Source: Escherichia phage LYE-01
Length of the DNA: 64,000 bases
Sequence record: PQ303785.1
Reading direction: 5' to 3' (one strand)
The notes under the pieces: generated by a model
Database searches by the model: none
What the model saw: only the letters and a program-made list of their open reading frames with translations
What the model was told of the DNA's origin: nothing
Shown here: positions 24,715 through 25,275 of the stretch, in pieces
Position numbering within the stretch: position 1 is the stretch's first letter
Layout of the letters: each line of letters opens with the position of its first letter
Program-made: the position numbers and the translations under genes

Positions 24715-25275
24715 ATGATTAATAAAATTGTACATGAAATGGCTTTAAACGGAGATTCATATAAAATATCTGCCGTAGTTGAAAATTTCATACTTAATAA
24801 AGTAAAAGAATATTTCACTGATTGTTCAGTTAGTTATCAAGAAAAAATGGTTTTAACCGACGATACTGAAAAATCAAATAATTTGTTTTGTTCGAATTTT
24901 ACCACTAAGAAGCGTACTAGACGGTTTGATATTGTTATTGCTCGTAATGGTAAAAAGCATATAATTGAAATCAAACACCAAGTTGGTGGAGGTACAGCTA
25001 TTGATTCGGTTGGAATATATTTAGAAGATAAAGATAAATTAAAAGAATACACAAAAACTGAAAATCCTGTGTCATTGATGATATTAGATTTTTTGCCATG
25101 CGGATATTATCCGCGTAATAAGTGGACAAAAAGAGAATCATTTACTGATAATCCAACCATCCAAGCAAGGTTTAATGAATATGCTAAATCACAAAACGTG
25201 TTAGTATTACTATCAAATACATATGATGAAGAATTATATAATTCGTTTTTTGCTGCAATAAATGAGAGAATATAA
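24715..25275 (+). CDS. hypothetical protein with PD-(D/E)xK nuclease-like core (186 aa), translationally coupled to dam
   Basis: Candidate catalytic motif [21 protein letters not shown] (D then E-x-K on successive predicted strands); stop overlaps dam ATG (TAATG); own promoter and SD. Confidence 0.5.

Follow-up and report, generated by a model that had tools for sequence, protein, structure and literature searches.

A candidate Dam-partnered PD-(D/E)xK nuclease in T-even phages and its relation to the 'orphan' Dam of T4

Type II restriction-modification (R-M) systems such as DpnII/MboI cut /GATC, are blocked by N6-methyladenine (m6A) in the site (G-m6A-TC) and contain a methyltransferase of the Dam family, e.g. 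DpnM. MunI and EcoRI cut C/AATTG and G/AATTC, respectively, and these enzymes as well as the GATC cutters leave 4-nucleotide (nt) 5' overhangs around a central AT, the adenine of which is the target of M.EcoRI. Type II R-M systems are also found in chloroviruses, where R.CviAI, cutting /GATC, occurs together with M.CviAI in PBCV-1. The phages T2 and T4 were among the model systems on which molecular biology was founded. The Dam of T4 is a textbook 'orphan' methyltransferase, the role of which in the phage has never been clear; a review from 2025 still regards phage Dam enzymes as orphans or solitary. Here we analyse ORF186, an open reading frame (ORF) of 186 amino acids (aa) that directly precedes dam in Escherichia phage LYE-01 (PQ303785.1; positions 24715-25275, + strand, of a stretch of 64,000 nt that we refer to as the window). 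The source phage is a T2/T4-like Tequatrovirus, its best match at this locus being Escherichia phage CJY920 (99.8%).

We consider it probable, albeit well short of certain, that ORF186 is a minimal Mg2+-dependent PD-(D/E)xK endonuclease and that, together with Dam, it constitutes a two-gene R-M-like cassette of the Tevenvirinae. Both the nuclease fold and the R-M-like nature of the pair are supported by structure prediction and comparative genomics. The pair would be a minimal, phage-restricted and Dam-partnered type II-like restriction cassette in strictly lytic phages, and it bears in an unexpected way on the origin of T4 dam. The first-pass annotation of the window had proposed an R-M-like nuclease arrangement and had called it unusual for a T-even phage; structure prediction and comparative genomics favour the arrangement itself, whereas in terms of distribution it is not unusual, being present in T2 and in about 150 further records.

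Predicted fold and restriction-enzyme relatives of ORF186

ORF186 (ATG at 24715, stop codon TAA at 25273-25275) is a genuine gene that is subject to strong purifying selection. It matches PHROG 8706 along its full length (E 6e-115), and when six Tequatrovirus alleles are compared in pairs, the ratio of nonsynonymous to synonymous substitution rates amounts to 0.02-0.12 and is similarly low as that of dam (~0.03). The ORF, its D/E/K motif and the overlap of its stop codon with the dam start codon are all present in the sequence as first described.

An AlphaFold2 model of ORF186 built on six diverse homologues (predicted local distance difference test 80.7, predicted template modelling score 0.79) contains a helix at residues 15-33, strands at 38-48, 66-77 and 80-88, and a helix at 92-104, i.e. 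it displays the alpha-beta-beta-beta-alpha-beta core order of the PD-(D/E)xK superfamily. The candidate catalytic residues are E23 in helix 15-33, D72 in strand 66-77, and E85 and K87 in strand 80-88, which places D72, E85 and K87 on the canonical beta2/beta3 hairpin of PD-(D/E)xK nucleases, with a Glu (E23) on helix alpha1. All four residues are invariant in nine sequences, down to 32-34% identity, and in the phage KPV15, as are H88, Q89 and the loop G93-T-A-I-D-S98. Thus, the PD-(D/E)xK core that had been suspected from the letters is supported by the invariance and the modelled positions of the D/E/K residues, and the predicted fold is that of a nuclease, not a non-nuclease fold that would have spoken against this core. 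A Foldseek search with the model returned PD-(D/E)xK nucleases exclusively, although the E-values are weak (best 8e-4), and the structural match that covers most of the protein is MunI, a small type IIP restriction endonuclease (144 of 186 residues). Structural similarity to MutH, PvuII or Sau3AI was not found among these comparisons, and a profile search for GIY-YIG, HNH and LAGLIDADG motifs gave no match in ORF186. Homologues of ORF186 have been labelled in two phage records: Sf24 carries a note of CATH 3.40.1350.10, the general nuclease-fold superfamily, and the GenBank record of Shinka names a 'putative DpnII restriction endonuclease'. Taken together, the model supports a restriction-endonuclease-like fold for ORF186.

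The weak Foldseek E-values and the superfamily-level CATH note are also what would be expected of a PD-(D/E)xK protein that has no role in restriction and is linked to dam by operon history only. Such a protein might be a nuclease that acts on DNA or RNA, either structure-specifically or non-specifically (Can2/Card1-, Bax1- or Mus81-like), or it might bind DNA and regulate dam. We regard this as unlikely, as the best match in terms of the fraction of the protein covered is the one to MunI, the invariance of the complete catalytic set speaks against a function in regulation alone, and the strict, long-lived adjacency to Dam with co-divergence across contexts (see below) is the signature of a cognate pair.

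Sequence searches with ORF186 yield weak signals, all of them restriction enzymes (Pfam DpnII, RE_BanI and PADLOC REase_II). Pfam PF04556 (DpnII) reaches 17.6 bits (E 0.0025), below its gathering threshold of 23 bits, and is matched independently by five of nine members of the ORF186 family (best E 8.3e-5), with only profile positions ~152-233 of 278 being involved, and PADLOC REase_II gives an E of 5e-5 for the protein of the window and 5e-6 for the best member of the family. With R.DpnII as query, itself a full-length PF04556 member (335.7 bits) and 99% identical to a database protein, an alignment of 18 DpnII sequences was built; aligned to it with hhalign, the ORF186 family gives an E of 4.3e-4 and a probability of 34% over 81 columns, both alignments being shallow (Neff 2.5 and 2.1). 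This alignment pairs E23/D72/E85 with E152/D201/E214 of DpnII, and GGGT with GSGSK. Searches of the PDB sequences with the single protein and with the family profile retrieved nothing relevant, only designed repeat proteins at an E of ~0.3, and NCBIfam matches of ORF186 to FolD were dismissed as chance.

Like DpnII/MboI, ORF186 has a Dam-family (D12) methyltransferase as its neighbour, and the weak but repeated profile likeness is confined to the catalytic core. Moreover, the order of secondary-structure elements is identical to that of the C-terminal domain of DpnII, and the structural neighbours are largely the same. However, DpnII comprises 288 aa, and ORF186 corresponds, by secondary-structure order, only to residues ~146-288, i.e. 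it is devoid of the ~140 N-terminal residues and does not have the two-part architecture of ~280 aa. The core strand reads E-I-K-H-Q in ORF186 and E-V-N-F-Y in DpnII, and, unlike DpnII/MboI, the ORF186 family was found only in T4-like phages and has the nuclease gene before the methyltransferase gene with overlapping codons.

The comparison with MunI and EcoRI, the sequences of which were checked against the PDB beforehand, brings out similarities of another kind. The three proteins have a common catalytic-strand motif E-x-K-(H/R)-Q-x-G (EIKHQVG in ORF186, EIKRQDG in MunI, EAKHQGK in EcoRI), followed by a G-(N/T)-A-x-(E/D)-x element (GTAIDS as compared to GNAHER/GNAIER of the MunI/EcoRI family), and with 202 aa MunI is close in size to ORF186. 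Closest structural neighbour and common catalytic-strand motif coincide in the MunI/EcoRI-like class. hhalign places D72/E85/K87 on MunI D83/E98/K100, yet with an E of 0.024 and a probability of 2%, which is not significant, and the ORF186 family gave no match to the single EcoRI sequence. The differences concern the stretch that leads from the catalytic strand to the putative recognition element, a loop of 7 residues in ORF186, 17 in MunI and 28 in EcoRI, the key residues for recognition (T94/D97/S98 instead of N/E/R), and the partner methyltransferase, which is Dam (GATC) instead of an AATT-type enzyme. We conclude from these comparisons that ORF186 is likely to be a minimal restriction endonuclease of the EcoRI/MunI/NgoMIV-like structural class and possibly a distant, truncated relative of the catalytic domain of DpnII, membership in neither of the two named families being established.

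Pairing of ORF186 with Dam

The gene downstream of ORF186, dam (25275-26054, + strand), codes for a Dam GATC N6-adenine methyltransferase of 259 aa that belongs to the D12 class (Pfam PF02086, E 1e-50). It is identical to T4 Dam in 253 of 259 positions (97.7%) and to T2 Dam in 255 of 259. According to the T4 record T4 Dam produces m6A in GATC, and because of the high identity the Dam of the window should have the same specificity. The ORF186 stop codon and the dam start codon form a TAATG overlap at 25273-25277 (+ strand; GAGAGAATATAATGCTAGG), in which TAA and the ATG of dam (25275-25277) have one base in common. The identical overlap is found in Shinka, Lutter, HY03, Sf24 and MX01, and overlaps of 7-35 nt are present in KPV15 and in the loci L004 and L005. 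This overlap makes ORF186 and dam candidates for translational coupling.

ORF186 is preceded by a Shine-Dalgarno sequence, GAGGA (24703-24707, + strand), read from the sequence and ending 7 nt before the ATG. Further upstream lies a putative early-type promoter (24660-24689, + strand; GTTTAC(T), a 17-nt spacer and TG-n-TATTAT, matching TTTACT-17-TATTAT with TG in a consensus scan), which would drive both ORF186 and dam. The site is kept in T2 and is lost through the T4-type deletion described below. In the scan of this region promoter-like sites were no more numerous than in shuffled sequences, so that the match alone is weak and the function of the site as a promoter can only be suggested.

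All ORF186 homologues with a readable context are located directly upstream of a gene for a D12-class methyltransferase, down to 34% identity, mostly with overlapping reading frames (1-35 nt). The pair occurs in three genomic contexts: (i) between gene 61/dam.1 and gene 56 in Tequatrovirus, in the Dhakavirus MX01 and in the metagenomic loci L006-L009, (ii) between denB and ndd in the Klebsiella phage KPV15 (Jiaodavirus), and (iii) immediately before rIIA in the metagenomic locus L005. Nuclease and Dam co-diverge, with identities to the proteins of the window of 98/98, 63/76, 56/72, 43/63, 34/57 and 34/54% (nuclease/Dam). The conserved adjacency of nuclease and methyltransferase that characterizes type II R-M systems is thus found in three contexts, and the link to Dam, which had first been noted from the window only, turns out to be stronger than described and is the best supported of our findings. 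As the pair is retained through relocation and deep divergence, it carries the signature expected of a cognate R-M pair; from a gene that is adjacent by chance, or from a homing endonuclease acting independently, such persistence would not be expected. Judged by its sequence and its context, the ORF186-dam pair behaves as a two-gene R-M-like cassette.

Distribution and decay of the cassette

The ORF186 family is tiny. It comprises 10 clusters among 5.8 billion proteins, and when 1.84 billion representatives were searched exhaustively with an HMMER profile, 11 proteins were retrieved, all of which are family members, fragments or artefacts. No bacterial homologue was reached among these representatives, i.e. 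the family was found in T4-like phages only. P0008 and P0010, obtained in the first of these searches, were excluded as metagenomic assembly chimeras in which part of the nuclease is joined to unrelated proteins. The artefacts of the profile search are P0010 and P0016, the latter being a tandem-repeat protein of 765 aa with a spurious weak match to the C-terminal helix. We found no published description or characterization of the ORF186 gene in the literature.

At a coverage of at least 80% ORF186 is present in 154 phage records, as compared to 183 records for dam. The pair is not rare, about 150 records of Tevenvirinae, T2 included, having it. The gene 61/dam.1 junction was found in 503 phage records, of which 145 (~30%) match at least 80% of a 1.1-kb stretch that begins where gene 61 ends, reaches as far as the dam start and contains the whole nuclease gene. 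Most of the other junction records match only the first 321 nt and therefore have no nuclease gene at the 61/dam.1 locus. In the one nuclease-less junction record that was inspected, Phaginator, dam.1 leads straight into gene 56, both the nuclease gene and dam being missing. Presence or absence of the cassette at a precise intergenic position varies among phages that are more than 90% identical.

This pattern resembles that of the seg/mob homing endonucleases of the T-even phages, which likewise are encoded by optional small nuclease genes inserted between conserved genes, are patchily distributed among near-identical phages and possibly play a role in the competition in mixed infections. ORF186 might accordingly be a free-standing homing endonuclease that cuts the dam/61 region of phages devoid of it and spreads by recombinational repair in mixed infections, as T4 SegF and other seg/mob genes do, with dam being merely a co-converted neighbour. 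Elements of this kind abound in T-even genomes, and in T4 segF lies only two genes away. Nevertheless, we consider this scenario quite improbable: ORF186 is gained, lost and relocated together with dam and not by itself, in each of three unrelated contexts the family is accompanied by a Dam gene, and both proteins co-diverge to 34%/54% identity. Furthermore, known families of T4 homing endonucleases occupy many sites, whereas the ORF186 pair was found at three loci only, and the nearest folds are type II restriction endonucleases, without the GIY-YIG, HNH or LAGLIDADG motifs, so that ORF186 differs from the GIY-YIG/HNH enzymes of the seg/mob group in fold and motif class and always travels with a methyltransferase.

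The cassette is gained and lost as a unit, and T4-type phages removed most of the nuclease gene but kept dam. When the region upstream of T4 dam is aligned to the window (blastn), two blocks are obtained, 24393-24646 and 25188-25286, which overlap by 8 nt. The overlap corresponds to 8-nt near-repeats, the left copy ATCGCAAA (24639-24646, + strand; identified in alignments with RB59, T2 and T4) and the right copy ATCACAAA (25188-25195, + strand), which together form the T4-type junction. As the two blocks are joined at this microhomology, T4-type phages carry a deletion of 549 bp, in which the promoter-like site and the ribosome-binding site were lost together with about 160 codons of ORF186, the remaining ~80 nt at its 3' end (about 26 codons) now serving as a leader of dam. 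RB59 has the same deletion junction as T4 in the DNA alignment, and in vB_EcoM_F1, Manna and PD112 only the same C-terminal remnant of the nuclease (aa 159-186) is retained. The phages that have dam only are T4 and its relatives.

The nuclease gene has also been damaged in other ways. In T2 the loss of 1 nt from a run of T close to the 3' end (positions 3380-3460 of the T2 locus L002) results in a product of 181 aa with an altered C-terminus and a stop codon 13 nt before dam, and in G4500 and G29 the nuclease ORF is split. The T4 deletion might have been thought to have arisen in a frameshifted T2-like gene, given a shared T5 homopolymer allele, but F1 and Manna combine the deletion with the unshifted allele, and this order of events was rejected.

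In R-M systems it is common that the gene of the restriction enzyme decays and the methyltransferase is kept. The repeated decay of the nuclease gene with persistence of dam suggests that T4 Dam is a secondary orphan. Although T4 Dam is looked upon as an orphan, its counterpart in the window, being 97.7% identical, is not solitary, neither in the phage of the window nor in T2 and about 150 others.

Proposed role, GATC avoidance and neighbouring genes

The activity of ORF186, its specificity for GATC and its biological target are predictions and are discussed as a model. In this model, ORF186 and dam would be transcribed early from one promoter and translated in a coupled manner, so that both proteins are made. 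The nuclease, probably a homodimer like MunI and EcoRI with E23, D72, E85 and K87 binding Mg2+, would cut the Dam site GATC or a site that contains GATC, and its partner Dam would methylate the central adenine at N6, which would block cleavage and protect the phage's own DNA. T4 DNA contains ~0.4% m6A (PMC7653180). The records that contain the cassette name Escherichia, Shigella, Salmonella, Yersinia, Klebsiella and Serratia as hosts.

Enterobacterales are Dam-positive. As Dam methylation is already present on the chromosome of an enterobacterial host, the nuclease would most likely be directed at DNAs in the infected cell with unmethylated GATC sites, i.e. those of co-infecting or superinfecting phages, including T-even relatives devoid of the cassette, or other rapidly replicating foreign DNA. 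The cassette may thus serve as a weapon or act as a selfish element in the competition between phages. This assignment of co-infecting phages as targets is plausible, but is the weakest part of the mechanism. The chlorovirus systems are similar to the cassette in that a lytic virus encodes a GATC-type nuclease together with a protecting adenine methyltransferase; the chlorovirus enzymes, however, degrade the unmethylated DNA of their host, whereas the enterobacterial host is Dam-methylated, so that the target must differ. In T4 the 'orphan' Dam would be what is left of the cassette, i.e. protection without nuclease.

Several points weigh against this proposal. The matches to named restriction-enzyme families all lie below the curated thresholds, and endonuclease activity as well as specificity are predictions. 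ORF186 has no counterpart of the ~140-aa N-terminal part of DpnII, and 186 aa alone may not provide full specificity. T-even DNA has glucosylated 5-hydroxymethylcytosine (hmC) in GATC, a modification that blocks most type II enzymes, and in combination with the Dam methylation of the host this makes it hard to name a DNA substrate in the infected cell. Moreover, the nuclease gene comes first and appears to be co-expressed with the methyltransferase gene, whereas classical R-M systems delay restriction. Finally, the frameshift in T2, the split ORFs in G4500 and G29 and the deletion in T4 imply that the nuclease gene is dispensable and is repeatedly lost.

Some of these difficulties would be resolved if ORF186 was a methylation-dependent or methyl-directed nuclease (DpnI- or MutH-like) that cuts fully methylated or hemimethylated GATC, e.g. 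in the Dam-methylated, cytosine-containing DNA of the host, with the phage DNA being safe by virtue of glucosyl-hmC and the phage Dam making or completing the marks. The Dam-methylated host chromosome would be an obvious target, co-expression without a delay of restriction would be explained and the linkage to Dam would fit equally well. T-even phages are established to degrade the cytosine DNA of their host, T4 doing so by means of EndoII and EndoIV, and this, too, is in line with a nuclease that reads methylation. We nonetheless hold such an activity to be distinctly unlikely, as ORF186 is a single domain of 186 aa without an additional methyl-reading domain, as there is no ready explanation of why T4 should have kept dam after the loss of the nuclease, and as the sole family-level sequence signal is DpnII/MboI, i.e. 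enzymes blocked by m6A, as described for MboI (PMC7653180).

If ORF186 is an active restriction endonuclease that is countered by Dam, T2 carries a restriction enzyme that has gone unrecognized, T4 Dam is what survives of an R-M cassette whose deletion junction can still be read in the sequence, and strictly lytic phages turn R-M-like modules on each other and not on the host. ORF186 would then also constitute a very small restriction-endonuclease scaffold (186 aa) that is possibly tolerant of hypermodified DNA, and it would be a candidate cause of the strong avoidance of GATC in the Tevenvirinae.

None of the 256 tetranucleotides is as strongly depleted in the window as GATC (67 observed as compared to 218 expected, ratio 0.31). 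GATC is likewise the most depleted tetranucleotide in 50 kb of Phaginator, which is devoid of the cassette (0.32), and in 30 kb of RB69, a Mosigvirus (0.31). In shorter loci the ratio is 0.06 for MX01 (5.5 kb; most depleted) and 0.29 for KPV15 (7.5 kb; second), whereas in 30 kb of RB49, a Krischvirus of the same host, GATC is not depleted (1.08, rank 190), all these ratios being derived from single stretches of a few genomes. As GATC is rare in the samples from Tevenvirinae, but not in RB49, its avoidance tracks the Tevenvirinae and not growth in Dam-positive E. coli as such. The Tevenvirinae are the only group in which the cassette was found, and the avoidance is present with or without the cassette.

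Such avoidance could result if these phages had long been exposed to a nuclease that cuts GATC in T-even DNA, but also from other causes, e.g. the action of host MutH on unmethylatable GAT-hmC sites. One may go further and speculate that the nuclease is a phage-against-phage restriction enzyme that cuts unmethylated GATC even in DNA containing hmC or glucosyl-hmC, that the non-essential Dam of T4, long a puzzle, is the retained antidote of a decayed cassette and that the approximately threefold avoidance of GATC is the scar of this conflict. We find this extended version doubtful; if it was true, T-even phages with the cassette, e.g. T2, would restrict or gene-convert their cassette-less relatives in mixed infections.

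The genes that flank the cassette are those typical of context (i). Gene 61, coding for the primase, is located at 23385-24413 (+ strand) and is followed by dam.1 at 24410-24610 (- strand), a hydrophobic ORF of 66 aa (PHROG 2024, function unassigned), the 3' end of which shares 4 nt with that of gene 61 and which is named a predicted membrane protein in the Sf24 record; dam.1 is also carried by phages without the cassette. Downstream of dam, gene 56, coding for the dCTPase (26100-26633, + strand), would comprise 177 aa if begun at TTG 26100, but ATG 26115 (MAYFNEC...) is the likelier start and fits the annotated gene 56 of relatives (516-519 nt).

The next gene is soc (26716-26961, + strand). 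The interval between gene 56 and soc contains the homing endonuclease gene segF in T4 and RB59 and two small ORFs in T2, and in the phage of the window segF is absent from it (26633-26716), i.e. segF shows a presence/absence polymorphism two genes from the cassette. A variable accessory gene precedes the primase gene: at the 61.2 position (22590-23216) it codes for 208 aa in the window and in RB59, but for only ~108-118 aa in T2, Shinka and Phaginator.
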